Notes: generated by a model not told the origin, from the letters alone. A stretch of DNA of 32,000 bases from Microcystis aeruginosa NIES-843 (GCF_000010625.1 NC_010296.1:5370001-5402000), one strand, 5' to 3'. Shown: positions 4,838 through 20,708, counted from the first letter of the stretch. Numbers and translations are program-made.

Positions 4838-5975
4838 TACTTTAGACGTTCATAATCTGAGATTTATTAAACTTCTGAAATCGTAGAGTCAGCAAGGAAT
4901 CCAGTTCTTTTTTATGTTTCAAATGGGCATCATTCAAACATTCATAAATGGCTGAAGAAAAGTCAGAAAAGTTTTCATAGTATTTACCATACAAACATTT
5001 CTTTTTGACAAATTTCCACAGCCTTTCAATTAAATTTAGATTAGGCGAATAAGACGGCAAATAGAGTAGCTCTATTGACAAAGAAAGAGCCAATTCTTCA
5101 ACAATTTTACATTTTTGATAGCGGGCATTATCTAAGACTAGAGTGATGGGAATAGTTATTCCTAAAGCAGCTATTTTTGACCAGAGTTCACAGACTTGAG
5201 TTGCTGTAATATAAGTGTCATTCGTAACCAGAATAACTTCATGAGTTATTGCATTTAATGCTCCTAAAACATTGAAGCGTTTACGCCCGCTCGGTGACTT
5301 AACAAAAAGTCTCTCAAAACACCAAACAAAACCGAGAAATGCTCCCATGACGAAGTGAGCGGCATCAACAAAAAAAACAGCCCTTTTTCCTTCTTTAGCC
5401 TCATTTAGTCTGGGTTCTAGCTTTTTTTCTTTGTAGTCCTCTTGTTCATCTGGGTCAGCTTTAGAAGGAAGAGAACCTACTTTTAAACATTTCATTCCCA
5501 TTGATTTTAAAAATTTTCTCACTTGGGTAAGACTTCGTTTTATTCCCGTTAATTCTTCTATCCTATATACAGCTTCATTTATTGTGGCTGGTGGATTTTT
5601 CTCGAAGTATTTTTTGAGCGTTTCTTTTTGAGACTCTAATTCACTTTTAGGGCGATAGAAGTTGATTTCTTTTAATTTTTCTATTCCGCCTTCTTCATAA
5701 TCTCGAAGATAGGTTAATAAGGTATTTGGCGAGATTCCTGCTAACTGACAAATTTTTTTGTGCGGTATCTTTTGGCTCTTTAACCAGAGAACTTCCATCT
5801 TCAGTTGAACCCGGGGATGGGGATGATGAAATCTTTCATAATACAGTGAGTTCTTTTCTTCTTCCGTGAATTCTAGGTTAATCATGTTTTTAATGAGTGC
5901 TTTGCTTCTAATTATGACTCTTAAACTATATTATTGTCCTTGAGTAAAAAATGCAAGTTGTAGCCGTGCAAAGTA
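4838..5975 (-). mobile_element. IS630-family insertion sequence, copy type 1 (about 1.14 kb)
   Basis: Imperfect terminal inverted repeats (TACTTTAGACG... / ...CGTGCAAAGTA). A TA dinucleotide lies on both sides (4836-4837, 5976-5977). It contains a single transposase ORF. Confidence 0.85.
4842..5885 (-). CDS. IS630-family DDE transposase
   Basis: 347 aa. N-terminal HTH (ICQLAGISPNTLLTYL). DDE region: FFVDAAHF, LVLDNARYQ, LPSYSPNLNLIERLWKFVK. Confidence 0.9.
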   Translation of the reverse strand: MINLEFTEEEKNSLYYERFHHPHPRVQLKMEVLWLKSQKIPHKKICQLAGISPNTLLTYLRDYEEGGIEKLKEINFYRPKSELESQKETLKKYFEKNPPATINEAVYRIEELTGIKRSLTQVRKFLKSMGMKCLKVGSLPSKADPDEQEDYKEKKLEPRLNEAKEGKRAVFFVDAAHFVMGAFLGFVWCFERLFVKSPSGRKRFNVLGALNAITHEVILVTNDTYITATQVCELWSKIAALGITIPITLVLDNARYQKCKIVEELALSLSIELLYLPSYSPNLNLIERLWKFVKKKCLYGKYYENFSDFSSAIYECLNDAHLKHKKELDSLLTLRFQKFNKSQIMNV

Positions 5976-6046: not shown

Positions 6047-7294
6047 CTGGACTGTTTCAGCTAAAATAGGGCAATAGCTCGAACAAGCAGAGGACATCAA
6101 TCATGGGAAGAGGTCGGCGAGATAAAGTCAATCTAACAGGGGAACAAAGAGAAAACCTCGAACAAATCAGTCGTAATGGCTATGCACCAGCTAAAAAAAT
6201 TCTCCACGCTCGGATTTTGCTGATGTGTGACGAGGGAGAACAGGCGAAAAGGAAATGGACAGATGAAGAAATAGGCGAAGCTTTAGAAGTTCATAGAAAT
6301 ACAGTGGGACGTATTCGTCAAAGATTTCTTCAAAAAGGCGAAAAACCAGCATTAGAACGGAAATCGAGAAAAACTCCCCCCACTCCGGCAAAAGTTGATG
6401 GAGCCGCCGCCGCCCAAATCATTGCCCTGTGCTGTTCGGAGCCACCATCTGGCCGAGCCGAGTGGACAATCCGACTATTAACCTCGGAACTCAAACAAAG
6501 ACAAATTATCACCGAGATTTCCAGTCCAACGGTGTGGCGTACTCTAAAAAAAACCAATTACGCCCTTGGAAAACCCAAAGATACTGTATTCCGGAACAGG
6601 ATTTAGCCCGATTTGTTGCCCAGATGGAAGTTGTCCTTGACCTGTATGGCACTCAGCCATCGGAAGAAGAACCGTTAATCGCGATGGATGAAGCATCAAA
6701 GCAACTACTTGGAGAAGTTTACCCTCCGATACCCATGCAACCTGGACAAGATAAAAAAGAAGACTATCACTATAGTCGTGAAGGGGTTCAAGCCTTGTTC
6801 ATGTTTTTTGACCCCCATCGAGGATGGAGACGGGTGAGTAACCGAGATAGTCGAACCCGAATAGATTGGGCAGAAGAAATTCGTCAATTATTGGATGTGG
6901 ACTATCCAAAGGCTCGAAAAGTCAAGCTCGTCTGTGATAATCTCAACACTCATAACATAGCCTCGCTTTATGAAGCATTTCCAGCACCCGTTGCTCATCG
7001 TTTAGCTAGAAGACTGGAAATTTATTACACACCTCGTAATGGTAGCTGGTTAAATGTAGCCGAAACTGAACTAAGCGTCTTATCGAGGCAATGTTTAGAT
7101 AGAAGGATTTCTAGCAAGGAAGAACTGAAAAGGGAGATAGAAACCTGGCAAAAAGAACGTAATCAGACTGCATCTACAGTAATATGGACGTTTACGACCA
7201 GCGATGCTAGGGTCAAGCTGAAACATCTTTATCCTGTGTTTGAGGAGGAGGAATCGGGAGAATCTATTGCACCAAATTAGCTGAAACAGTCCAC
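6047..7294 (+). mobile_element. IS630-family insertion sequence, copy type 2 (1248 bp)
   Basis: About 19-bp TIRs (CTGGACTGTTTCAGCTAA / TTAGCTGAAACAGTCCAC). Flanking TA at 6045-6046 and 7295-7296. The transposase is unrelated in sequence to copy type 1. Confidence 0.9.
6103..7280 (+). CDS. IS630-family transposase encoded in two frames (orfA 6103-6553, then -1 shift, orfB to 7280)
   Basis: orfA holds the HTH part and orfB the DDE part (VCDNLNTH, YTPRNGSWLNVAETELS). The A8 run at 6546-6553 joins ...TLKK to NQLRPWKTQRYCIP, recreating the family-typical LKKNxLxPW...CIP motif. Confidence 0.85.
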
Positions 7295-7311: not shown

Positions 7312-10300
7312 TTAAACTAATACAAGTATATTAGATGCGGTAAGAGTGGGTTTGGAACTGAGAGTTGCAATTTGAATGGCTGCTAGTGTACCTGTCCCGT
7401 CCCCATCAAAGAATAGTCCTCCAGTGATTGTATTATAAATAAAGCGATTGCTGGCATTTAATGCAGTTGTTCCTAACACGAATTGAGCGGCTGTAATCGC
7501 CACTCCTGCGGCTAAACCACCGCCAAAACCCGCAGCAGAGACAGTAATTTTATCCCCCTGACTGGAGAGAAAATCGGTAATTGTGTCAATCCCTTGATTG
7601 GGGTTTTTGAAGGTGAAGCGATCGCCACCTGCACCCCCTGTTATGGTATCATTACCAGTACCACCAATCAAGGTATCATTTCCCGCACTTCCTGTAAGGG
7701 TATTTTTACCACTATTACCAGTGATAATGTTATTTAATGTGTTACCTGTCCCATTAATATTTGCGGTTCCCGTTAACGTGAGGTTTTCTAGGTTATTTCC
7801 CAGGGTATAAGTAACTGATGATTGAACAGTATCTGTCCCTTGGTTGGCATTTTCCGTAATGGTATCGGTAGTAGTATCAACTTGATAAGTATCATTCCCT
7901 AAACCACCGATGAGGGTATCAATTCCTGTTGCACCATTAAGAATATTGTTACCACTATTACCGGTGATAATGTTATTTAATGTGTTACCTGTCCCGTTAA
8001 TATTTGCGGTTCCCGTTAACGTGAGGTTTTCTAGGTTATTTCCCAGGGTATAAGTAACTGATGATTGAACAGTATCTGTCCCTTGGTTGGCATTTTCCGT
8101 AATGGTATCGGTAGTAGTATCAACTTGATAAGTATCATTCCCTAAACCACCGATGAGGGTATCAATTCCTGTTGCACCATTAAGAATATTGTTACCACTA
8201 TTACCGGTGATAATGTTATTTAATGTGTTACCTGTCCCGTTAATATTTGCGGTTCCCGTTAACGTGAGGTTTTCTAGGTTATTTCCCAGGGTATAAGTAA
8301 CTGATGATTGAACAGTATCTGTCCCTTGGTTGGCATTTTCCGTAATGGTATCGGTAGTAGTATCAACTTGATAAGTATCATTCCCTAAACCACCGATGAG
8401 GGTATCAATTCCTGTTGCACCATTAAGAATATTGTTACCACTATTACCGGTGATAATGTTATTTAATGTGTTACCTGTCCCGTTAATATTTGCGGTTCCC
8501 GTTAACGTGAGGTTTTCTAGGTTATTTCCCAGGGTATAAGTAACTGATGATTGAACAGTATCTGTCCCTTGGTTGGCATTTTCCGTAATGGTATCGGTAG
8601 TAGTATCAACTTGATAAGTATCATTCCCTAAACCACCGATGAGGGTATCAATTCCTGTACCTCCATTAAGGATATTGTTACCACTATTACCGGTGATAAT
8701 GTTATTAGCAGCGTTACCTGTCCCATTAATATTTGTAGTCCCAGTTAGGGTCAGATTTTCCACATTAGCGGGTAGGGTAGTGGTGACATTAGCGGTTAAG
8801 GTGTCGCTGATGGTGACAATTCCCTTGTTATTGGTAAGAGTTGCATTGATGGGATTACTGAGGTTAATGGCAAAAGTTTCGTTTGCCTCATTGAGGTTAT
8901 CATTAAGGATGGGAATGGTAATAGTAGCAGTGGAAGTATTAGGTGCAATGGTGATAGTTCCGGTTTTGCTAGTGTAATCTACATTAGCGGTAGCGTTAAT
9001 GGGTGCAGTGGTATAGTTGAAGGTAATTGGTTGTGAATTGGGGTTATCAACTGTGACGGTGAGGATGGCATTATTATCTTTACCTTCCACTACGGTGATA
9101 TTATTGATGGAGAGTTTGGAGAAATCGTCATTAGTAATTGTCCCCGTCACTGCGGTGGCGGTCCCCACTGTATAACCAGTACCTGAAGCAAGAGTTAAAG
9201 CGACGGTTTCGTTATTTTCAACTGTAGTGTCAGCAGTGGGGTCAACTGTTACGGTAGCAGTGGATGAATTAGCAGCGAAGGTGACTGTATTGGTAGTCCC
9301 TGTACGAGTGTAGTCGGTATTGAGGGTAGCTGTCCCTCCGAGGGTGTAATTGACTGTTAAGGAATTAGTGGTTACTCCGCTACGAGTGAAGGTATAAACC
9401 AGATTTGTTGTCCCGTCTTCGTTAACACTTGCAGGGGAGACTGCTAAGCTAATAACGACAATTGTCCCTTGCTCTTCAAATGCACCAATATCTACTGTAC
9501 CACCAAAGATGCGATTGAATCCTGTTCCTCGTTGATCAAAGGGAATTTGTTCGGTCGTGTCACCATCACCATCAATATCTTCGCTATCAACAAGAATAAG
9601 GCTATTGTTTCCTGCATTAATCGCCGGACTTCCTGCTAAAAGTGCATGGGTCAGAGTTAAACCCCCATAGTTAGCTAAAGGAGCAAGTCCAGGATTAGAA
9701 TTAACAATATCAGTTCCTGTGCCAATCGTTCCTTTTGCACCAGTTAAATCACCGATAAGGTTGTAGTTATTGCCATTAAATATCGCACCAGATAACCCAG
9801 AAGAAAGTAAATCGAAACCATTAGTTGTATTATCTATATTTCCAGCAACAATTGTGTTTTTAAGAAAAAAGGTTGTACCAAGACTATAAATGCCGCCTCC
9901 ACCGCGTCGTCCAACAAATTGAGTGTCAACGACAGTATTATTGGTAATTGTGCTATTAATCAAATTAAATGTGTCACCAGAAGAATATATGCCACCTCCA
10001 GCATAACTTGCATTATTGCCACTAACGGTTGTATTGATCAAAGCCATTGAAGTACCGTTGTTCGTTATGCCTCCACCATTTCCCGCACTATTACCACTAA
10101 CAGTAGTATTGATCAGAGTCAGCGATCCAGCTACACTTGATATGCCACCTCCATAAACGCCTCCTTGATTATTATTAATTGTCGAGTTGATTGCAATTAG
10201 TGTTCCGCCTGAATTGTCAACGCCTCCGCCTTCCTGAAAACTACTACCACTAGCTATATTATTACTAACCACGCTACCCTGACGGAGATAGACAAAACCA

Positions 10301-11268
10301 CGATTCTGAATACCACCACCATTGCTAGAAGAACCAAGTGCCTTATTTCCACTTACAGTTGTGTTGTATAAGTCAAGAACACCTGTCGCATTAACACTAA
10401 TACCTGCGCCGGAAGAAGATATAATTCCCCCGGTTACTACGACATTCTGTAAGCTTAATGCACCTCCACTGAGAACATGAAAAACCCGATCAGAATTTAA
10501 TAATCCTGACGCATCAATAGTAGCTTTTTGTCCATTAAATGCTCCAATATAAAGCACATTATTACGAGACTTAATATCTAAGTCTCCCTTTTTTCCCTCA
10601 TTTTCATTAACGCCATTACTCGTTAGAGTATAGGTTAAGCCTCCTGTTAAATGAATTTCATATTCAGTATTCGGGTTAGCATTAGCAATTAAGATCGCAT
10701 CCCGCAAAGATAATCCATTATCAGCATTGCCATCATTTTGATCGGCGGTCGTATTAACGGTTAAAATAGTTGGTGCAGATTTTTCTACAGGAACATCATT
10801 TCCTGTGATTGTAATATTGGCAAAGTCATTTTCAGTTGTAATTCTTGCTACTTCTTGCGTTGTTAAATCTACTCCACGAACTAATGCTGCGAAATATTCT
10901 CCCTCATCTCCCGCGCTATCCACCTGATTAATTTGAGCATCCACATAATGCCCAATTTCTTCTAAAATTACATTAATTATCGTTGCTGACGAGGCCGTAT
11001 TCAAAAAAGATGCTGATAGATAAATCTTATTCTTACTGCTGGAATATGCACCATTCGCAGTCCCCAAAACCTCATCACTGAGTACCTCAATTGGGGGAAG
11101 TTGACTAAAATTTCGACTTTGCCACTGTTGTCGTAATTGCGTCGCCTTAACCACATCATAACTTGTCCCAAAAGCGGTTTCTAAATTCACCCAAAAGCCA
11201 TCAGATTGAGCGAAATTGAACAAAACATCGTCAACAGCAGGAAGAATCGGCAACAGGGTAGAAGTCAT
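7312..11268 (-). CDS. giant secreted RTX-type protein: N-terminal conserved leader domain, parallel beta-helix, Calx-beta-like domains, five 81-aa Ca-binding repeat modules, T1SS-type C-terminus
   Basis: 1318 aa. It has a CSLREA-like LSLRDAILIANANP followed by many xNTTVSGN/GGGI beta-helix turns. Calx-beta-like segments: TATVTVDPTADTTVENNETVALTL, TATITIPILNDNLNEANETFAINL. GGxGxD nonapeptides: GGLGNDTY, GGTGNDTITGGAGGDRFTF. There is no N-terminal signal peptide. Confidence 0.85.
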   Translation of the reverse strand: MTSTLLPILPAVDDVLFNFAQSDGFWVNLETAFGTSYDVVKATQLRQQWQSRNFSQLPPIEVLSDEVLGTANGAYSSSKNKIYLSASFLNTASSATIINVILEEIGHYVDAQINQVDSAGDEGEYFAALVRGVDLTTQEVARITTENDFANITITGNDVPVEKSAPTILTVNTTADQNDGNADNGLSLRDAILIANANPNTEYEIHLTGGLTYTLTSNGVNENEGKKGDLDIKSRNNVLYIGAFNGQKATIDASGLLNSDRVFHVLSGGALSLQNVVVTGGIISSSGAGISVNATGVLDLYNTTVSGNKALGSSSNGGGIQNRGFVYLRQGSVVSNNIASGSSFQEGGGVDNSGGTLIAINSTINNNQGGVYGGGISSVAGSLTLINTTVSGNSAGNGGGITNNGTSMALINTTVSGNNASYAGGGIYSSGDTFNLINSTITNNTVVDTQFVGRRGGGGIYSLGTTFFLKNTIVAGNIDNTTNGFDLLSSGLSGAIFNGNNYNLIGDLTGAKGTIGTGTDIVNSNPGLAPLANYGGLTLTHALLAGSPAINAGNNSLILVDSEDIDGDGDTTEQIPFDQRGTGFNRIFGGTVDIGAFEEQGTIVVISLAVSPASVNEDGTTNLVYTFTRSGVTTNSLTVNYTLGGTATLNTDYTRTGTTNTVTFAANSSTATVTVDPTADTTVENNETVALTLASGTGYTVGTATAVTGTITNDDFSKLSINNITVVEGKDNNAILTVTVDNPNSQPITFNYTTAPINATANVDYTSKTGTITIAPNTSTATITIPILNDNLNEANETFAINLSNPINATLTNNKGIVTISDTLTANVTTTLPANVENLTLTGTTNINGTGNAANNIITGNSGNNILNGGTGIDTLIGGLGNDTYQVDTTTDTITENANQGTDTVQSSVTYTLGNNLENLTLTGTANINGTGNTLNNIITGNSGNNILNGATGIDTLIGGLGNDTYQVDTTTDTITENANQGTDTVQSSVTYTLGNNLENLTLTGTANINGTGNTLNNIITGNSGNNILNGATGIDTLIGGLGNDTYQVDTTTDTITENANQGTDTVQSSVTYTLGNNLENLTLTGTANINGTGNTLNNIITGNSGNNILNGATGIDTLIGGLGNDTYQVDTTTDTITENANQGTDTVQSSVTYTLGNNLENLTLTGTANINGTGNTLNNIITGNSGKNTLTGSAGNDTLIGGTGNDTITGGAGGDRFTFKNPNQGIDTITDFLSSQGDKITVSAAGFGGGLAAGVAITAAQFVLGTTALNASNRFIYNTITGGLFFDGDGTGTLAAIQIATLSSKPTLTASNILVLV
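7716..8770 (-). repeat. 243-bp (81-codon) tandem repeat inside the giant gene: about 4 near-perfect copies plus diverged edge copies
   Basis: The GTAACTGATGATTGAACAG... unit starts at 7811, 8054, 8297 and 8540 (period exactly 243). The inner copies are identical by eye. Confidence 0.9.
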
Positions 11269-11360: not shown

Positions 11361-11393
11361 AGAAAACGGGTTTCTTTAAGAAACCCGTTTTCT
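11361..11393 (-). terminator. 33-nt perfect hairpin (AGAAAACGGGTTTCTT T AAGAAACCCGTTTTCT), followed by an extra copy of the right arm (11394-11409)
   Basis: The 16-bp arms are exactly complementary. It lies immediately 3' of the Rpn-like A1 stop codon, and the U-rich 3' arm fits an intrinsic terminator. Confidence 0.55.
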
Positions 11394-11407
11394 AAGAAAC
11401 CCGTTTT

Positions 11408-12367
11408 CTAGATATTGATTTTTGCCAAAGACTGCTTAAATTCTGCGAGAGAATTAGCGGTAGCTGCTAATTTTAGTAGCTCTTCTAAGATAGTAGGGTT
11501 AGTCATTTTGCCGATTATCTCTTCAATTTCTGAAGAAATCTGTCCAAACCGCACAGTTAAAACTGTTTTTATGTCATCACGGCTTTTTTCTAGCACCCCA
11601 ATTTCTTTACCGCGTTCGATTCCTCGTAACTCCATATTACTCATTAAAGGCATGGTTTTTTCCTCCTCAAATTGTTTAATTTTACTCTCTAAGCTTGACT
11701 GCAATTCAGGGGATAAAGTCATCATATTGTCGATGATTTCAAACAGTTTAATTATCTGTTCCCTCTCGAACTCCTTTTCATATAATCCCCTGATTAACTT
11801 CCACTTCCACTGTTCCCGTTGTGGCAGCTTCCCAGTAGTCGCTTTTGTTTTCAGGTGTGCCATGACTATCATAGCAAAAGGATTGCTACTTGCTTCTAGT
11901 TCTGTCCATCTTTCCTCATAGTCCAGTAATTTAACCGTTGGGAATTTGAGGCTGACTTCACAACCGGCGATAGTATAATTATAGGAATCTGGTCGCCAAT
12001 TTACTCGTTCATCTCCTAATATAGCGAGACTGATAACCGGTTTCTGATACAAATCAAAGGCCCGATAGTTATAAATATACATCCTCTGAGGAAAATTTTC
12101 TTCGTATTGACTTTGAATTTCAATATGAATCAAAATCCAGACTTCTTCACCCCTGAGTAACCAAACTTTATAGAGTTTGTCAGCGAAACGTTTTTTGGTC
12201 TTTGCTGAAGCGGTAATCCGTTTGAGTTCTTTTTCTAGGGATTCGGGAATTTTTGTCCAATCAATTAATTGGTGAACTTCAGGAAAAAAGAAGTATAAAA
12301 ACGCTTCAAAATACTCGCTTAATGCTTCTTTCCAGGGTTCATCATAATTGGCGGTTGTTGGGTTCAT
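11408..12367 (-). CDS. YhgA/Rpn-like PD-(D/E)XK nuclease ('recombination-promoting nuclease/putative transposase') with DUF4351-type C-terminal tail, family A copy 1
   Basis: 319 aa. N-terminus YDEPWKEALSEYFEAF. Core: ADKLYKV...WILIHIEIQ...FPQRMYIYNY (a D...E.Q nuclease-like motif). Helical tail: TVLTVRFGQISSEIEEIIGKM...LAEFKQSL. It has one RGIERGKEIG hinge unit. Confidence 0.65.
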   Translation of the reverse strand: MNPTTANYDEPWKEALSEYFEAFLYFFFPEVHQLIDWTKIPESLEKELKRITASAKTKKRFADKLYKVWLLRGEEVWILIHIEIQSQYEENFPQRMYIYNYRAFDLYQKPVISLAILGDERVNWRPDSYNYTIAGCEVSLKFPTVKLLDYEERWTELEASSNPFAMIVMAHLKTKATTGKLPQREQWKWKLIRGLYEKEFEREQIIKLFEIIDNMMTLSPELQSSLESKIKQFEEEKTMPLMSNMELRGIERGKEIGVLEKSRDDIKTVLTVRFGQISSEIEEIIGKMTNPTILEELLKLAATANSLAEFKQSLAKINI

Positions 12368-12711
12368 TTGAGTTGTTTGCTTACTCGTAGGCTGTGAAGC
12401 GCGATAGCGTAACGCACCGATTTAATAATAGAGGTGGTGGTGGTAATCTGGGGATTTTGTGGTAAAAAAGCGGATATTTGTTCGATTCCGTCTTGATTGG
12501 GAGAGAGAATAACCGTGGCGACTTCTGGAATTACTCCAGCTTGGAGACTTTGATAATCGCTAACACCAGCATCGAGGAAAACTACGGTAGCGGTTAAACG
12601 CTGATTTCTCACACTATCCACCCGATTAGCTTGACTCAAGCCATCAGATTGAGCAAAATTGAACAAAACATCGTCAACAGCAGGAAAGCTCGGCAACAGG
12701 GTAGAAGTCAT
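12364..12711 (-). pseudogene. 5' fragment of a DUF4347-domain giant-protein gene (leader + truncated domain), reading into the Rpn-like A1 start
   Basis: MTSTLLPSFPAVDDVLFNFAQSDG matches the giant-gene start. It is followed by TATVVFLDAGVSDYQSLQAGVIPEVATVILSPNQDGIEQISAFL...QITT, which looks like a DUF4347 N-terminal half. The rest of such a gene is absent. Its stop overlaps the A1 ATG (ATGA). Confidence 0.7.
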
Positions 12712-12799: not shown

Positions 12800-12832
12800 A
12801 GAAAACGGGTTTCTTTAAGAAACCCGTTTTCT
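12800..12832 (-). terminator. 33-nt perfect hairpin plus duplicated right arm (unit boundary)
   Basis: Identical to the hairpin at 11361-11393 and directly 3' of the A2 stop. Confidence 0.55.
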
Positions 12833-12846
12833 AAGAAACCCGTTTT

Positions 12847-13878
12847 CTAGATATTGATTTTAGCCAAAGACTGCTTAAATTCTGCGAGAGAATTAGCGGT
12901 AGCTGCTAATTTAACAATCCCTTGTAATGTAGATAGTACCGAAACTTTATTCAGGTATTGTTCCACATCTAAAGGAACTTCACCTAAGCGAGCTTGCAAA
13001 ACTGTTTTGACAAAATCACGAGCATTTTCTAACGCTCCGATTTCCTTGCCTATTTCTTTACCGCGTTCTATCCCTCGTAACTCCCCAATTTCCTTGCCAA
13101 TTTCCTTACCGATTTCCTTACCGCGTTCTATTCCTCGTAACTCCATATTACTCATTAAAGGCATCGTTCTTTCCTCCTCAAATTGTTTGATTTTACTCTC
13201 TAAACTTGACTGCAATTCAGGGGATAAAGTCATCATATTGTCGATGATTTCAAACAGTTTAATTATCTGTTCTCTCTCGAACTCCTTTTCATATAATCCC
13301 CTGATTAACTTCCACTTCCACTGTTCCCGTTGTGGCAGCTTCCCAGTAGTTGCTTTTGTTTTCAGGTGTGCCATGACTATTATAGCAAAGGGATTGCTAC
13401 TTGCTTCTAGTTCTGACCATCTTTCCTCATAGTCCAGTAATTTAACCGTTGGGAATTTGAGGCTGACTTCACAACCAGCGATAGTATAATTATAGGAATC
13501 TGGTCGCCAATTTACTCGTTCATCTCCTAATATAGCGAGACTGATAACTGGTTTCTGATACAAATCAAAGGCCCGATAGTTATAAATATACATCCTCTGA
13601 GGGAAATTTTCTTCGTATTGACTTTGAATTTCAATATGAATCAAAATCCAGACTTCTTCACCCCTGAGTAACCAAACTTTATAGAGTTTGTCAGCGAAAC
13701 GTTTTTTTGTCTTTGCTGAAGCGGTAATCCGTTTAAGTTCTTTTTCTAGGGATTCGGGAATTTTTGTCCAATCAATTAGTTGGTGAACTTCAGGAAAGAA
13801 GAAGCATAAAAACGCTTCAAAATACTCGCTTAATGCTTCTTTCCAGGGTTCATCATAATTGGCGGTTGTTGGGTTCAT
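12847..13878 (-). CDS. YhgA/Rpn-like nuclease with DUF4351-type tail, family A copy 2 (variant C-terminal cassette)
   Basis: 343 aa. It is near-identical to A1 and A3 except for hinge repeat number and a replaced ~39-codon block (FVKTVLQARLGEVPLDVEQYLNKVSVLSTLQGIV). Confidence 0.65.
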   Translation of the reverse strand: MNPTTANYDEPWKEALSEYFEAFLCFFFPEVHQLIDWTKIPESLEKELKRITASAKTKKRFADKLYKVWLLRGEEVWILIHIEIQSQYEENFPQRMYIYNYRAFDLYQKPVISLAILGDERVNWRPDSYNYTIAGCEVSLKFPTVKLLDYEERWSELEASSNPFAIIVMAHLKTKATTGKLPQREQWKWKLIRGLYEKEFEREQIIKLFEIIDNMMTLSPELQSSLESKIKQFEEERTMPLMSNMELRGIERGKEIGKEIGKEIGELRGIERGKEIGKEIGALENARDFVKTVLQARLGEVPLDVEQYLNKVSVLSTLQGIVKLAATANSLAEFKQSLAKINI

Positions 13879-14222
13879 TTGAGTTGTTTGCTTACTCGTA
13901 GGCTGTGAAGCGCGATAGCGTAACGCACCGATTTAATAATAGAGGTGGTGGTGGTAATCTGGGGATTTTGTGGTAAAAAAGCGGATATTTGTTCGATTCC
14001 GTCTTGATTGGGAGAGAGAATAACCGTGGCGACTTCTGGAATTACTCCAGCTTGGAGACTTTGATAATCGCTAACACCAGCATCGAGGAAAACTACGGTA
14101 GCGGTTAAACGCTGATTTCTCACACTATCCACCCGATTAGCTTGACTCAAGCCATCAGATTGAGCAAAATTGAACAAAACATCGTCAACAGCAGGAAAGC
14201 TCGGCAACAGGGTAGAAGTCAT
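13875..14222 (-). pseudogene. 5' fragment of a DUF4347-domain giant-protein gene (second copy)
   Basis: Protein identical to the 12364-12711 fragment, with the same ATGA overlap with the A2 start. Confidence 0.7.
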
Positions 14223-14310: not shown

Positions 14311-14343
14311 AGAAAACGGGTTTCTTTAAGAAACCCGTTTTCT
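14311..14343 (-). terminator. 33-nt perfect hairpin plus duplicated right arm (unit boundary)
   Basis: Identical to the hairpin at 11361-11393 and directly 3' of the A3 stop. Confidence 0.55.
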
Positions 14344-14357
14344 AAGAAACCCGTTTT

Positions 14358-15401
14358 CTAGATATTGATTTTAGCCAAAGACTGCTTAAATTCTGCGAGA
14401 GAATTAGCGGTAGCTGCTAATTTTAGTAGCTCTTCTAAGATAGTAGGGTTAGTCATTTTGCCGATTATCTCTTCAATTTCTGAAGAAATCTGTCCAAACC
14501 GCACAGTTAAAACTGTTTTTATGGCATCGCGGCTTTTTTGTAACGCGCCAATTTCTTTACCAATTTCCTTACCTATTTCTTTACCGCGTTCTATCCCTCG
14601 TAACTCCCCAATTTCCTTGCCAATTTCCTTACCGATTTCCTTACCGCGTTCTATTCCTCGTAACTCCATATTACTCATTAAAGGCATCGTTCTTTCCTCC
14701 TCAAATTGTTTGATTTTACTCTCTAAACTTGACTGCAATTCAGGGGATAAAGTCATCATATTGTCGATGATTTCAAACAGTTTAATTATCTGTTCCCTCT
14801 CGAACTCCTTTTCATATAATCCCCTGATTAACTTCCACTTCCACTGTTCCCGTTGTGGCAGCTTCCCAGTAGTCGCTTTTGTTTTCAGGTGTGCCATGAC
14901 TATTATAGCAAAGGGATTGCTACTTGCTTCTAGTTCTGACCAGCTTTCCTCATAGTCCAGTAATTTAACCGTTGGGAATTTGAGGCTGACTTCACAACCG
15001 GCGATAGTATAATTATAGGAATCTGGTCGCCAATTTACTCGTTCATCTCCTAATATAGCGAGACTGATAACCGGTTTCTGATACAAATCAAAGGCCCGAT
15101 AGTTATAAATATACATCCTCTGAGGAAAATTTTCTTCGTATTGACTTTGAATTTCAATATGAATCAAAATCCAGACTTCTTCACCCCTGAGTAACCAAAC
15201 TTTATAGAGTTTGTCAGCGAAACGTTTTTTGGTCTTTGCTGAAGCGGTAATCCGTTTGAGTTCTTTTTCTAGGGATTCGGGAATTTTTGTCCAATCAATT
15301 AATTGGTGAACTTCAGGAAAAAAGAAGTATAAAAACGCTTCAAAATACTCGCTTAATGCTTCTTTCCAGGGTTCATCATAATTGGCGGTTGTTGGGTTCA
15401 T
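14358..15401 (-). CDS. YhgA/Rpn-like nuclease with DUF4351-type tail, family A copy 3
   Basis: 347 aa. It has the longest hinge, (GKEI)3-GELRGIER-(GKEI)3, and an A1-type C-terminal tail. Confidence 0.65.
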   Translation of the reverse strand: MNPTTANYDEPWKEALSEYFEAFLYFFFPEVHQLIDWTKIPESLEKELKRITASAKTKKRFADKLYKVWLLRGEEVWILIHIEIQSQYEENFPQRMYIYNYRAFDLYQKPVISLAILGDERVNWRPDSYNYTIAGCEVSLKFPTVKLLDYEESWSELEASSNPFAIIVMAHLKTKATTGKLPQREQWKWKLIRGLYEKEFEREQIIKLFEIIDNMMTLSPELQSSLESKIKQFEEERTMPLMSNMELRGIERGKEIGKEIGKEIGELRGIERGKEIGKEIGKEIGALQKSRDAIKTVLTVRFGQISSEIEEIIGKMTNPTILEELLKLAATANSLAEFKQSLAKINI

Positions 15402-15455: not shown

Positions 15456-15746
15456 TTAATAATAGAGGTGAATGGTGGTAATCTGGGGATTTTGTGGTAA
15501 AAAAGCGGATATTTGTTCGATTCCGTCTTGATTGGGAGTGAGAATAACGGTGGCGACTTCTGGAATTACTCCAGCTTGGAGACTTTGATAATCGCTAACA
15601 CCAGCATCGAGGAAAACTACGGTAGCGGTTAAACGCTGATTTCTCACACTATCCACCCGATTAGCTTGACTCAAGCCATCAGATTGAGCAAAATTGAACA
15701 AAACATCGTCAACAGCAGGAAAGCTCGGCAACAGGATAGAAGTCAT
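15456..15746 (-). pseudogene. 5' fragment of a DUF4347-domain giant-protein gene (third copy, ends ...QITTIHLYY-stop)
   Basis: Same sequence as the other two fragments, but it has 1 nt more in the GGT run. It therefore keeps the family-like ...TTIHL frame and stops 55 nt before the A3 ATG. Confidence 0.7.
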
Positions 15747-15834: not shown

Positions 15835-15867
15835 AGAAAACGGGTTTCTTTAAGAAACCCGTTTTCT
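15835..15867 (-). terminator. 33-nt perfect hairpin plus duplicated right arm (unit boundary)
   Basis: Identical to the hairpin at 11361-11393 and directly 3' of the A4 remnant stop. Confidence 0.55.
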
Positions 15868-15881
15868 AAGAAACCCGTTTT

Positions 15882-16670
15882 CTAGATATTGATTTTTGCC
15901 AAAGACTGCTTAAATTCTGCGAGAGAATTAGCGGTAGCTGCTAATTTTAGTAGCTCTTCTAAGATAGTAGGGTTAGTCATTTTGCCGATTATCTCTTCAA
16001 TTTCTGAAGAAATCTGTCCAAACCGCACAGTTAAAACTGTTTTTATGGCATCGCGGCTTTTTTGTAACGCGCCAATTTCTTTACCAATTTCCTTACCTAT
16101 TTCTTTACCGCGTTCTATTCCTCGTAACTCCCCAATTTCCTCACCAATTTTCCTTCCTCGTAACTCCATATTACTTACTAAAGGCATGGTTCTTTCCTCC
16201 TCAAATTGTTTGATTTTACTCTCTAAGCTTGACTGCAATTCAGGGGATAAAGTCATCATATTGTCGATGATTTCAAACAGTTTAATTATCTGTTCCCTCT
16301 CGAACTCCTTTTCATATAATCCCCTGATTAACTTCCACTTCCACTGTTCCCGTTGTGGCAGCTTCCCAGTAGTCGCTTTTGTTTTCAGGTGTGCCATGAC
16401 TATTATAGCAAAAGGATTGCTGCTTGCTTCCAATTAGTCACTGATAACTGATAACTGATAACTGATAACTGAATAGAGTTTGTCAGCGAAACGTTTTTTT
16501 GTCTTTGCTGAAGCGGTAATCCGTTTAAGTTCTTTTTCTAGGGATTCGGGAATTTTTGTCCAATCAATTAGTTGGTGAACTTCAGGAAAGAAGAAGCATA
16601 AAAACGCTTCAAAATACTCGCTTAATGCTTCTTTCCAGGGTTCATCATAATTGGCGGTTTGTGATGTCAT
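15882..16670 (-). pseudogene. family A Rpn-like gene copy 4 with an internal ~280-bp deletion replaced by heptamer repeats
   Basis: The N-terminal 66 codons (16473-16670) and the C-terminal ~180 codons (15882-16430) align to A2 and A3. The nuclease core (LIHIEIQ...) is missing. The filler is CAATTAGTCA(CTGATAA)4CTGAA. Confidence 0.8.
16441..16473. repeat. (CTGATAA)4 heptamer microsatellite at the A4 deletion junction
   Basis: Four exact CTGATAA units plus CTGAA. A related array lies at 18979-19005. Confidence 0.9.
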
Positions 16671-16775: not shown

Positions 16776-16808
16776 AGAAAACGGGTTTCTTAAAGAAACC
16801 CGTTTTCT
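16776..16808 (-). terminator. 33-nt hairpin variant (AGAAAACGGGTTTCTT A AAGAAACCCGTTTTCT) between family B copy 1 and A4
   Basis: Same arms as the unit-boundary hairpin. It lies about 55 nt 3' of the B1 stop. Confidence 0.5.
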
Positions 16809-16865: not shown

Positions 16866-17861
16866 TTACAGGGTAATTAAAGTATTTAACCAATTGATTA
16901 AATCTTCAACCGTAGAAAAATCGAATAAAGCTTCTCCTAATACTTCGACATCATCAATACTTAACTGCATAATTTTAGTTTCCAATGAAGGATTAATCTC
17001 CCCTAACTTGCGTTTAATTTGACGAAGAATCAATGTCTTTTCGCGTTCGATACCTTGTTCGATACCTTGTTCAATACCTTGTTCAATACCTTGTTCAATA
17101 CCCCGTTCGATACCTTGTTCAATACCTAGTTCAATACCTTGACGCATCCAACTGGTAGTAATTTGCATAACTCCCTCCTGTACGGGTTGACTAAATGTGC
17201 TAATCTCTTGTTGAAATTGTATCTCTTCGACCGGATTTAGATTGAGATAAGTATCAATAAATCCAGAAATTAATTCCATTTTCGCAGGATTTAACCTTAA
17301 AGTAATTAACAAGCGCAGACATTCGGCCTTAACTTTTGCTCGCTCTTTCTCGGCAATGTTCATCTTCGCCATCAAAGCTGAAGCAACCGGATTCGGCTGA
17401 TTGAGAAAATCTCGCCAATTTAATCGATTTAACTGCACTACTTGATAGTTAAATTCTAAGACTTTTAAATCAGGAAAATCGACTACATATTGACTAATCG
17501 CTTCTCTTTTTGGCTTTGAATAAGAAAAAATTACAATCGGATAAATCGGTAAGACAAATTTCTCATGAAAGCGAGCAAAATAAGTAAACATTCGCCGGTT
17601 AAACCACTTTCGGGAACTTTCCTGCGCCTCTACATGAATCAGAAAAAAAGATTCTTTTCCTCGAAACTTAACCTGTGCGACTAAATCACTTTCATACCTT
17701 TCTCCTTCCGTGACATCTGTAAATACTTCTTTGTCTAAAAAAGTAATCGATTCCCTATCTAAATAATCTATCAATTGAGGGAAAAACAACTCGATAAATT
17801 CGACAAAAAAGGTGGAGATTAACTCCTTAAATAAGCGATAATGGTCAATATTATTAGTCAT
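16866..17861 (-). CDS. YhgA/Rpn-like PD-(D/E)XK nuclease ('Rpn family recombination-promoting nuclease/putative transposase') with DUF4351 tail, family B copy 1
   Basis: 331 aa. N-terminus DHYRLFKELISTFFVEFIELFFPQ. Core: ESDLVAQV...FFLIHVEAQ...FNRRMFTYFARF. Also LNRLNWRDFLNQPNPVASALMAKM. The hinge is (GIEx)8. The tail LILRQIKRKLGEINPSLETKIMQLSIDDVEVLGEALFDFSTVEDLINWL is DUF4351-like. Confidence 0.75.
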   Translation of the reverse strand: MTNNIDHYRLFKELISTFFVEFIELFFPQLIDYLDRESITFLDKEVFTDVTEGERYESDLVAQVKFRGKESFFLIHVEAQESSRKWFNRRMFTYFARFHEKFVLPIYPIVIFSYSKPKREAISQYVVDFPDLKVLEFNYQVVQLNRLNWRDFLNQPNPVASALMAKMNIAEKERAKVKAECLRLLITLRLNPAKMELISGFIDTYLNLNPVEEIQFQQEISTFSQPVQEGVMQITTSWMRQGIELGIEQGIERGIEQGIEQGIEQGIEQGIEREKTLILRQIKRKLGEINPSLETKIMQLSIDDVEVLGEALFDFSTVEDLINWLNTLITL

Positions 17862-18125: not shown

Positions 18126-18240
18126 GGGTGCTATCACAAAAATTAACATTTATTACAAGAAAACGGGTTTCTCGTAATGTTCACTACCCGATGAAATTGC
18201 TCTGGTAAAATGTCCATAATAGACAAGAGAGAATTTACTT

Positions 18241-18453
18241 ATGAGTGTAGCCGACGAAATTTACAAAATCGTGAAATCAATGCCTGAAGATCGAGCGAAT
18301 AAAATTTTGGATTTTGCAAAGTTTTTGCAAGCTAAACCAGAGTTAGAAGATAAGCCATTAGATTTCCGCGATGCGGCGGGATTGGGGCAAGAAATGTGGC
18401 AATCAATTGATGTAGATGCTTATATTCAGCAGGAGCGATCATCATGGGAATAG
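18241..18453 (+). CDS. type II antitoxin (VapB-position small protein, DUF2281-like N-terminus)
   Basis: 70 aa. It overlaps the downstream PIN gene by 10 nt. N-terminal pattern: IYKIVKSMPEDRANKILDFAKFLQ. Confidence 0.6.
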   Translation: MSVADEIYKIVKSMPEDRANKILDFAKFLQAKPELEDKPLDFRDAAGLGQEMWQSIDVDAYIQQERSSWE

Positions 18454-18878
18454 TTTTACAACCGGGAAATATTGTATTTTTAGATACGGCTCCTTTTATT
18501 GACTTTTTCGAGCAACATCCCATCTTTTTTCCTTATATGGAAAAGTTATTTTATGATGTCTCCATTTATCAGGTTAAGGTTATCACTTCGATGATCACTT
18601 TTATCGAAATTGTTACCCATCCAGCAAGGATAGGTAATCAGGAGTTGGTAGAACAATACCGGACATATTTCACCCGTTCGAGCCAAATTACTCTGTTACC
18701 AATCGATTTATCTATTGCTAAGGAGGCGATCGCTCTTCCTACCCAATACACTCTCAAAACACCCGATGCGATTCAACTGGGAACAGCGATCGCATATTCA
18801 GCAACCTACATTATCACTAATGATAGGCAATGGAAACAGTTAACTCATCAAAATGTATTGCTAGTAGATGAAATGTAG
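18444..18878 (+). CDS. vapC: PIN-domain ribonuclease toxin (VapC family)
   Basis: 144 aa. The conserved acidic positions are visible (FLDTAPF, FIEIV, TPDAIQLGTA, IITNDRQW). It is translationally coupled to the upstream small ORF. Confidence 0.75.
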   Translation: MGIVLQPGNIVFLDTAPFIDFFEQHPIFFPYMEKLFYDVSIYQVKVITSMITFIEIVTHPARIGNQELVEQYRTYFTRSSQITLLPIDLSIAKEAIALPTQYTLKTPDAIQLGTAIAYSATYIITNDRQWKQLTHQNVLLVDEM

Positions 18879-19028: not shown

Positions 19029-20036
19029 TTACAGGGTAATTAAAGTATTTAACCAATTGATTAAATCTTCAACCGTAGAAAAATCGAATAAAGCTTCTCC
19101 TAATACTTCGACATCATCAATACTTAACTGCATAATTTTAGTTTCCAATGAAGGATTAATCTCCCCTAACTTGCGTTTAATTTGACGAAGAATCAATGTC
19201 TTTTCCCGTTCAATACCTTGTTCGATACCTTGTTCAATACCTTGTTCAATACCTTGTTCAATACCTTGTTCAATACCCCGTTCGATACCTTGTTCAATAC
19301 CTAGTTCAATACCTTGACGCATCCAACTGGTAGTAATTTGCATAACTCCCTCCTGTACGGGTTGACTAAATGTGCTAATCTCTTGTTGAAATTGTATCTC
19401 TTCGACCGGATTTAGATTGAGATAAGTATCAATAAATCCAGAAATTAATTGCATTCTCGCCGCATCTAACCTTAAAGTAATTAACAAGCGCAGACATTCG
19501 GCCTTAACTTTTGCTCGCTCTTTCTCGGCAATGTTCATCTTCGCCATCAAAGCTGAAGCAACCGGATTCGGCTGATTGAGAAAATCTCGCCAATTTAATC
19601 GATTTAACTGCACTACTTGATAGTTAAATTCTAAGACTTTTAAATCAGGAAAATCGACTACATATTGACTAATTGCTTCTCTTTTTGGCTTTGAATAAGA
19701 AAAAATTACAATCGGATAAATCGGTAAGACAAATTTCTCATGAAAGCGAGCAAAATAAGTAAACATTCGCCGGTTAAACCACTTTCGGGAACTTTCCTGC
19801 GCCTCTACATGAATCAGAAAAAAAGATTCTTTTCCTCGAAACTTAACCTGTGCGACTAAATCACTTTCATACCTTTCTCCTTCCGTGACATCGGTAAATA
19901 CTTCTTTGTCTAAAAAAGTAATCGAGTCCCTATCTAAATAATCTATCAATTGAGGGAAAAACAACTCGATAAATTCGACAAAAAAGGTGGAGATTAACTC
20001 CTTAAATAAGCGATCATGGTCAATATTATTAGTCAT
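19029..20036 (-). CDS. YhgA/Rpn-like nuclease with DUF4351 tail, family B copy 2
   Basis: 335 aa. It is near-identical to B1, differing by an extra GIEQ unit, a small patch (DAARMQ vs NPAKME) and two point changes. Confidence 0.75.
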   Translation of the reverse strand: MTNNIDHDRLFKELISTFFVEFIELFFPQLIDYLDRDSITFLDKEVFTDVTEGERYESDLVAQVKFRGKESFFLIHVEAQESSRKWFNRRMFTYFARFHEKFVLPIYPIVIFSYSKPKREAISQYVVDFPDLKVLEFNYQVVQLNRLNWRDFLNQPNPVASALMAKMNIAEKERAKVKAECLRLLITLRLDAARMQLISGFIDTYLNLNPVEEIQFQQEISTFSQPVQEGVMQITTSWMRQGIELGIEQGIERGIEQGIEQGIEQGIEQGIEQGIEREKTLILRQIKRKLGEINPSLETKIMQLSIDDVEVLGEALFDFSTVEDLINWLNTLITL

Positions 20037-20392: not shown

Positions 20393-20425
20393 AGAAAACG
20401 GGTTTCTTGAAGAAACCCGTTTTCT
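20393..20425 (-). terminator. 33-nt hairpin variant (AGAAAACGGGTTTCTT G AAGAAACCCGTTTTCT)
   Basis: Same arms as the unit-boundary hairpins. It lies upstream of the B2 unit. Confidence 0.45.
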
Positions 20426-20429
20426 CGAT

Positions 20430-20492
20430 CAGAAATTAATTACATTTTCGCTAGATTTAACCTTAAAGTGATTAACAAGCGCAGACATTCCG
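20430..20492 (-). pseudogene. ~63-bp remnant of a third family B Rpn-like gene
   Basis: CAGAAATTAATTACATTTTCGCTAGATTTAACCTTAAAGTGATTAACAAGCGCAGACATTC aligns to the internal B1 sequence 17264-17326 with a few mismatches. Confidence 0.7.
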
Positions 20493-20708
20493 CTAACCGA
20501 TCACAAAAAAAACTGGAGCGAGCGCTTTTCGCCACCCCAGTGCTGTCACGGAATTCAATTCTGTATCTAAATTAACACATTATTGGCAGCAAGCATAATT
20601 AAGGAAATTGGAAATTTTTCCGAAAGGGGTTTCCAAAGGCTGTAACCTTTACTGACAGGGGATTTCGAGCCTGATAAGGCTAAAGTTTTTGGAGTCTATC
20701 CTCGAAAA

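Follow-up and report, generated by a model that had tools for sequence, protein, structure and literature searches.

Four neighbouring genes of Microcystis aeruginosa NIES-843 belong to one family and are nearly identical along most of their length. The second of them, named A2 here, carries a different block of about 39 codons in its C-terminal tail, and the sequence on both sides of this block is common to the other copies. The locus therefore raises the question of how such a block could arise between near-identical flanks and whether it might have a role in the interactions of the encoded proteins. The genes lie on the minus strand at ~11.3–16.7 kb of the analysed stretch of DNA (NC_010296.1; 32,000 nt, referred to as the window) and form an array of four tandem units with a start-to-start spacing of 1500–1523 nt. 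Each unit contains one gene of the family, and the nearest database relatives of these genes are almost all from Microcystis. The coordinates of the array and of its neighbours are collected in Table 1.

Table 1. Features of the 32,000-nt window discussed in the text (positions counted from the first nucleotide of the window).
Feature	Position	Strand	Remarks
IS630-type transposase, intact	4842-5885	-	HTH and DDE_3
Second IS630-type transposase	6103-7280	+	two overlapping ORFs: HTH_32 6103-6606, DDE_3 6429-7280
Intact RTX/Calx-beta gene	7312-11268		1318 aa
Copy A1	11408-12367	-	319 aa, type I tail, one KEIG unit
Copy A2	12847-13878	-	343 aa, Rpn-like ORF, type II tail; D63, E83, Q85 intact
Palindromic 15-mer AGAAACCCGTTTTCT, three copies	12800..12848	.	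overlaps the A2 stop codon; three likewise at each A stop
Putative intragenic small protein of A2, RpnS-like	12847..13164	-	105 aa
Last 21 codons of A2, KLAATANSLAEFKQSLAKINI, and stop	12847..12912	-	zero differences vs A3; right-hand homology flank common to types I and II
Variant 39-codon block of A2, tail type II	12913..13029	-	A2 residues 284-322; putative small protein residues 46-84
Four-residue repeat tract (GKEI)n with ELRGIER insert	13036..13122	-	copy number variable; likely left recombination flank
Candidate internal RBS and start codon, GGAGGAAAGAACGATG, Met239	13162..13177	-	in all four A copies
Copy A3	14358-15401	-	347 aa, type I tail, 3+3 KEIG units
Copy A4	15882-16670	-	C-terminal 183-aa ORF 15882-16433 and N-terminal remnant 16467-16670; type I tail
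DUF4347 5' fragments, 96-115-aa ORFs	12364-12711, 13875-14222, 15456-15746	-	Pfam E=4e-10
B1	16866-17861	-	DUF4351-bearing paralog, upstream of the A array
PIN-domain gene	18444-18878	+	Pfam E=2e-13; between B1 and B2
B2	19029-20036	-	DUF4351-bearing paralog, upstream of the A array
AGAAACCCGTTTTCT sites	11361-11409, 12800-12848, 14311-14359, 15835-15883, 16776-16808, 18158-18172, 20393-20425		inverted and direct arrangement

The variant block of A2 and the tail types of Microcystis

In several other Microcystis genomes, a single B gene and a single A gene accompany the large RTX/Calx-beta gene at the syntenic locus. As there is one A gene at each of these loci, comparison of the genomes indicates that the four-copy array is a local expansion. 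The nuclease domains of A1, A2, and A3 are ~98% identical, and their tails differ pairwise in type or repeat number.

The whole units of A2 and A3 were aligned using MAFFT. The alignment showed that 76 aligned positions differ between the two units and that 56 of them fall within the 117 columns from 13029 to 12913 (Fisher p=8e-53). Upstream of this block, ~18 substitutions were found in ~1250 nt (~1.4%), and downstream of it, at 12912-12712, there were zero differences over 200 nt. The divergence is thus confined to a block and is not gradual, which agrees with the sequence-only reading in its claim of a replaced block between near-identical flanks; the peptides that it had quoted and the identity of the last 21 codons proved to be correct as well. 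A few extra substitutions and a 12-nt indel (one KEIG) are found as far as 13048, which places the left edge of the A2 block at or inside the repeat tract. The peptides, read directly, keep the hydrophobic positions between types I and II, and most other positions are changed (R-D-x-[IV]-K-T-V-L-x-x-R-[FL]-G-x-[IV]...[IL]...L...[LV]-K-L-A-A-T). This pattern fits the same fold with a new surface. A frameshift origin of the block was rejected, since the alignment of the two versions is gap-free and shows substitutions, and since type II recurs elsewhere at 98–100% identity.

Some minor signals overlap this region. A terminator scan flagged a short type II-specific hairpin with a T-rich stretch behind it, GAGCGTTAGAAAATGCTC GTGATTTTGT, at the left block edge (13020-13037, minus strand); as a terminator, it is probably a chance match. 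An antisense ORF at 12854-13432 was taken as a mechanical by-product of the repeats and was set aside.

The comparison of Microcystis proteins and loci revealed at least four discrete tail types, namely type I (...TVRFGQISSEIEEIIGKMTNPTILEELL; A1, A3, and A4), type II (...QARLGEVPLDVEQYLNKVSVLSTLQEIV; A2), and types III (...KTRLGDIPIEIEQAVDKISVLSILDELLKSALTVNSFDELHQLLEQ) and IV (...ENRLGDIPGDIGQCLNDASVISVLEEMLKAALIVNSFEECRKSF). At the DNA level, the tail blocks are 96–100% identical within a type, with a single outlier copy (L018) at 89–93%, and 49–69% identical between types. The A2 block itself is 98–100% identical to the type II blocks of five other loci (L001, L002, L003, L005, and L026) and 49–55% identical to type I; its private change is LQGIV, where the other type II copies have LQEIV. 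Over the first 715 nt, the genes are 90–99.6% identical whatever the tail type and cluster by genome. For example, two adjacent copies of LEGE 91341, one with a type III tail (L001a) and the other with a type IV tail (L001b), are 99.6% identical over these 715 nt.

All tail types have the same left boundary, immediately behind the final KEIG repeat. The sequences of types I and II come together again at AAATTAGCAGC, and the KLAATANSLAEFKQSLAKINI segment is 88–100% identical between type I and type II copies across genomes; types III and IV remain different through the stop codon. Several proteins carry hybrid tails. In P0137 and P0140, a type I left part and a type II right part are joined at KTVL, P0147 has the reverse arrangement (type II left, type I right), and P0001, P0006, and P0134 combine type II with the type I 'ELL' end. 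The SNPs of the array itself form a checkerboard, in which A2 resembles A4 in the 5' part (first third) and A3 further 3'. The discrete types, the hybrids with other breakpoints, and the SNP checkerboard together indicate that the A2 block originated from homologous recombination or gene conversion and not from drift, as had been proposed from the sequence alone. As far as alignments can establish it, the mosaic, the discreteness of the types, and their reassortment are clear.

No second type II block that could have served as a donor was found anywhere in the 32,000-nt window. The neighbours examined include no silent cassettes, no recombinase, and no reverse transcriptase with a template repeat. 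Moreover, unlike in pilE/pilS-type variation, shufflons, and diversity-generating retroelements, the breakpoints here vary between hybrids, as they do in general homologous recombination. On these three grounds, a programmed cassette system was rejected.

The direction of the exchange may be read in two ways. A type II gene in an assembly of M. flos-aquae (L029) is 96% identical to A2, shares its KINI end, and is also located before a matching DUF4347 fragment; A2 could therefore be either the recipient of a type II block or the unconverted copy. In the latter case, the unit would have been type II originally and A1, A3, and A4 would have been converted to type I. Alternatively, the flanks would have undergone concerted evolution, with the block resisting it, and the clustering of nuclease domains by genome is the signature of such a process. 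However, type I is the commoner state here, being present in three of the four units and in the syntenic single-copy loci L010, L011, L012, L017, and L021, and we consider these reversed or concerted histories possible, though less likely than not. They would change the history of the array only and not the mechanism.

The mosaic could also be suspected to be an artefact, in which a tandem array was collapsed or misassembled with reads of a type II copy from elsewhere in the genome. Repeats of 1.5 kb with 98% identity are hard for short-read assemblers, and the exact A2 protein has no record in the public collection. However, private SNPs and a repeat count of its own distinguish A2 along the unit, and type II tails with identical flanks recur in independent assemblies (L001, L003, L026, and L029), including a complete chromosome. 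A misassembly of the A2 block is therefore highly unlikely.

The block of A3 is 100% identical to that of L010, whereas the nuclease domains of the two genes are 94.3% identical. More generally, within-type blocks are conserved between strains at least as well as the nuclease domain, which suggests that the tails are a few maintained alleles and not the product of mutational hypervariability. The variability of Rpn tails to which the sequence-only reading referred is reported for E. coli (PMC10400941); in this family, there are few conserved types and no hypervariability by point mutation. Every one of the co-resident copies examined differs from the others in tail type or repeat number.

The nuclease domain, the internal start signal, and the repeats

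The assignment of the A genes to a protein family was examined with profile and structure comparisons. A2 matched PF04754 with E=0.0034 and 17.5 bits, below the cut-off of 21, and TIGR01784 with 15.5 bits, below the cut-off of 52.1. Weak matches to PF04754 were obtained for 13 of 42 homologues (best 8.8e-5), and some close homologues are named 'Rpn family' or 'RpnC/YadD family' by NCBI. The residues D63, E83, and Q85 are invariant across the 42 homologues, and the AF2 model of A2 (pLDDT 75.6) places a beta-beta-alpha-beta core around them. An hhalign comparison of the family profile with the single sequence of E. coli RpnA gave no significant match; the non-significant one pairs D63 and HIEIQSQ with D...LIEHQST of RpnA. 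The Foldseek searches with the full-length model and with the tail-only model returned nothing significant, the weak matches including the PD-(D/E)XK nucleases EcoO109I, McrC, and Cap4 at E>0.3. When the family profile was searched against PDB sequences, only chance matches were obtained, and a PADLOC scan of A2 gave no defence-system match. Taken as a sequence family, the A proteins fit best as a remote branch of the Rpn superfamily (YhgA-like, PD-(D/E)XK) that lies outside the formal limits of the curated models. Such genes are abundant in cyanobacteria, where most of them carry annotations as hypothetical proteins or transposases.

The tail had been named DUF4351 in the sequence-only reading. 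Pfam makes no such call on the A-copy tails: PF14261 gave no match for the A1 and A2 tails even at E<=10, nor did it in the 42 homologues. The neighbouring B copies match DUF4351 with E=1.2e-20, and the A profile aligns with B1 over the whole length, including the DUF4351 tail (hhalign probability 98.5%, E=2.9e-15). As the alignment runs from end to end, the A tail appears to be a divergent relative of the DUF4351 tail of B, and the label can be used for the A tails solely in the sense of this profile homology to the B paralogs.

A GGAGG-N8-ATG string precedes the tail in all of the Microcystis and Nostocales copies examined, and it is identical in Nostocales homologues of only ~75% overall identity. 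In a close relative (L029), GATGAGG is found instead of GAGGAGG. The residue at this site is methionine (Met239) in 40 of 42 proteins and Val in the other two. For a wider comparison, 50 divergent homologues were used (distinct, from metagenomes, with 40–70% protein identity). An ATG was present at the Met239 site in 49 of them, and a GGAGG was located 5–20 nt upstream in 32 of 50, whereas random 16-nt windows of these genes contain it in 2.2% of cases. The Glu codons at -6/-5 showed a GAG:GAA ratio of 35:7 versus 606:1074 elsewhere (p=7e-10, an optimistic value as the homologues are related to one another; synonymous sites are saturated at 40–70% protein identity). An earlier sliding-window count of identical codons also peaked just before Met239 (7/8), which alone was not significant and was superseded by the larger codon test. 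At the level of sequence, the A genes thus contain a conserved internal start signal. Two internal starts had been put forward previously, and it is the one in MPLMSNMELRG that gained strong comparative support from the conserved GGAGG-N8-ATG and the codon bias. A scan for sigma-70-type promoters upstream of the internal start found weak consensus matches only, 320–470 nt away, and these were not taken as evidence.

Translation from Met239 would yield putative small proteins of 81 aa (A1), 105 aa (A2), 109 aa (A3), and 101 aa (A4). In the putative small protein, the first KEIG repeat starts at residue 15, 14 residues past Met239, and the copy number ranges from 1 to 8 among the Microcystis copies. 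In the divergent homologues, the repeats have other sequences (GRQE, GIEQ, GMEK, and others), and in 27 of 29 they begin 8–18 residues past the Met. The AF2 model of the tail predicts a long helix through the repeats (residues 6–60), followed by three short helices, with pLDDT 81–88 over residues 41–100. The Foldseek search of this tail against the PDB gave no significant match and did not recover RpnA_S (7TH0).

Tail-only copies are common. In A4, the nuclease core (residues ~69–156), including the E-x-Q motif, is deleted, and the internal SD/ATG and the repeats are kept. As the identical deletion junction (…KKRFADKLYSVISYQLSVISD) recurs in other strains (L003 and L019), this nuclease-less copy looks old and conserved, and it may be a stand-alone gene for the putative small protein. 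Together with A4, truncated copies are found in L001, L003, L015, and L019 directly behind full-length genes; those in L001 and L003 are of type II. Many annotated Microcystis proteins of 85–109 aa start at Met239 or Met215 and have the same tail extent. No tail-like proteins, as a possible phage mimic, were found by a scan of viral contigs.

These data bear on a simpler reading, according to which the mosaic is real but has no function: a chance exchange would have taken place in an ordinary C-terminal domain, and the GGAGG-ATG would be unused, being, for example, a pause site or a by-product of the EEE(R/K)xM peptide. Such a reading would agree with the scores below the curated family models and with the gene conversion seen elsewhere in the array without an obvious purpose. 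However, the GAG bias falls precisely at the Shine–Dalgarno position, and the start codon is retained almost throughout the divergent homologues. The conservation of within-type blocks, equal to or higher than that of the nuclease domain, argues for selection on each type, and the co-resident copies examined never share both tail type and repeat number. We therefore regard a functionless mosaic as improbable.

A proposed mechanism and known systems

In E. coli, the variable C-terminal domains of Rpn proteins are made separately, as RpnS, from internal starts and block the toxic full-length protein RpnL, a DNA endonuclease (Zhong et al. 2023, PMC10400941), as the sequence-only reading had stated of a small intragenic protein. 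The neutralisation by RpnS is paralog-specific, and the four-residue repeats, which start 8–20 residues past the internal Met, tune the pairing by their number. The same study describes rpn arrays that arose by tandem duplication as well as stand-alone RpnS genes, some of them annotated as DUF4351, and itself likens the repeats to those of type I restriction specificity subunits (PMC10400941).

The A genes share several features with RpnA-E of E. coli and with the plasmid-borne RpnP2. These are an N-terminal domain of the PD-(D/E)XK type (presumed in the case of the A proteins) with the D...E-x-Q-S motif, an internal RBS and ATG before the tail (candidate sites in the A genes), four-residue repeats 8–20 residues after the internal Met with a number that varies within the species, a helical tail that opens with a long helix (predicted in the case of the A proteins), and tandem arrays formed by direct duplication. 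The sequence similarity to the E. coli proteins is remote and lies below the Pfam and NCBIfam cut-offs. RpnA_S comprises 49 aa in the crystal structure 7TH0, whereas the putative small protein here has 81–109 aa and four predicted helices. The reassortment of discrete, conserved tail blocks between near-identical paralogs is absent from PMC10400941, and the specificity in E. coli was shown for whole paralog tails and for the repeat number but not for a 39-codon sub-block. The occurrence of tail-only genes beside full-length copies resembles the stand-alone RpnS genes of E. coli (ypaA/rpnE_Ss and rpnC_Ss; DUF4351); however, the tail-only copies here arose when array members lost internal or 5' sequence, and they are PF14261-negative.

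Two other kinds of systems offer a partial parallel. Like the polymorphic toxins CdiA-CT/CdiI and Rhs, the A proteins have a conserved N-terminal body, a sharp boundary, and interchangeable C-terminal modules, with orphan modules nearby and exchange via homologous recombination. In those systems, the toxin is swapped and immunity is encoded by a separate gene, whereas here the swapped part would be the putative oligomerisation or antitoxin part nested in the toxin gene. In EcoR124I/II, the number of the four-residue TAEL repeat and the shuffling of target-recognition domains alter specificity, and the A genes similarly combine a variable number of four-residue repeats with domain reassortment. 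However, EcoR124I/II belong to another protein family, and their specificity is for a DNA sequence and not for a protein partner.

Based on these comparisons, we propose the following mechanism. The 3' third of each A gene contains an internal Shine–Dalgarno sequence and ATG, then the KEIG repeats, and then a small domain predicted to be helical. Recombination or gene conversion reassorts the tail types I–IV onto near-identical nuclease domains. The repeat tract and the upstream part of the gene are the likely left flank; the right flank of types I and II would consist of the final 63 nt and the palindromic 3' element. A2 is a type II tail within a type I array. The tail would also be made as a separate small protein, which would keep the full-length nuclease inactive by binding to its identical domain. 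Since both partners would be read from the same DNA, a block replacement would alter the toxin and the antitoxin at once, and the new pair would be self-compatible and insulated from the neighbouring paralogs.

Our main reading, to which we assign a probability of about 0.6, is that the A array may represent an Rpn-like gene-within-gene system with tail types reassorted by recombination and with the tail acting as a nested antitoxin. The separate small protein, the silencing of the nuclease, and a contribution of the block to pairing specificity are plausible by analogy with RpnL and RpnS of E. coli. More tentatively, Microcystis might keep the tails as 'allotypes' I–IV, so that each swap by gene conversion would create a new insulated toxin/antitoxin pair, a cassette mode beside the repeat-number mode known from E. 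coli. Balancing selection might maintain the tail types in the population, with cyanophages as one conceivable agent. The locus would be a cyanobacterial case of the system described in 2023 and not a new kind of element, and the reassorted tail types would be a modest extension of it. If the analogy holds, the array is a natural experiment in the diversification of gene-within-gene toxin/antitoxin pairs, and the Rpn model extends to cyanobacteria; the gain would be incremental, as the system has already been described.

Neighbouring features of the window

The palindromic AGAAACCCGTTTTCT occurs 17 times in the window, as compared with 0 expected copies, and always just 3' of an A or B copy. 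It is also found at many other Microcystis loci. It might act as a terminator or as an anchor for recombination, or it might be a REP-like element.

The stop codon of the DUF4347 fragment overlaps the start codon of the next A gene (ATGA). The first ~24 codons of the fragment match the start of the intact RTX/Calx-beta gene and the remainder does not, so the duplicated unit was apparently taken from a different locus of an A gene and a large gene. The intact gene itself includes five tandem 243-nt copies at 7646-8767, which are 79–93% identical and encode GNSGNNILNG...DTLIGGLGNDTY modules.

Upstream of the array, B1 and B2 are distinguished by a single GIEQ repeat and by a short patch, LNPAKMEL versus LDAARMQL, of which a third partial copy is present as a 64-nt stretch at 20430-20493. 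A GGAGG-N5-ATG is located before the (GIEQ)n repeats in both genes (B1, 17166-17178; B2, 19341-19353), and each of them may have its own putative internal small protein. The PIN-domain gene stands between them, and a PIN domain match (PF01850) was also obtained in a metagenomic A homologue of 447 aa (P0031). At the other side of the array, beyond the RTX/Calx-beta gene, the second of the two IS630-type transposases is split and could be a frameshifted or a programmed-frameshift copy.
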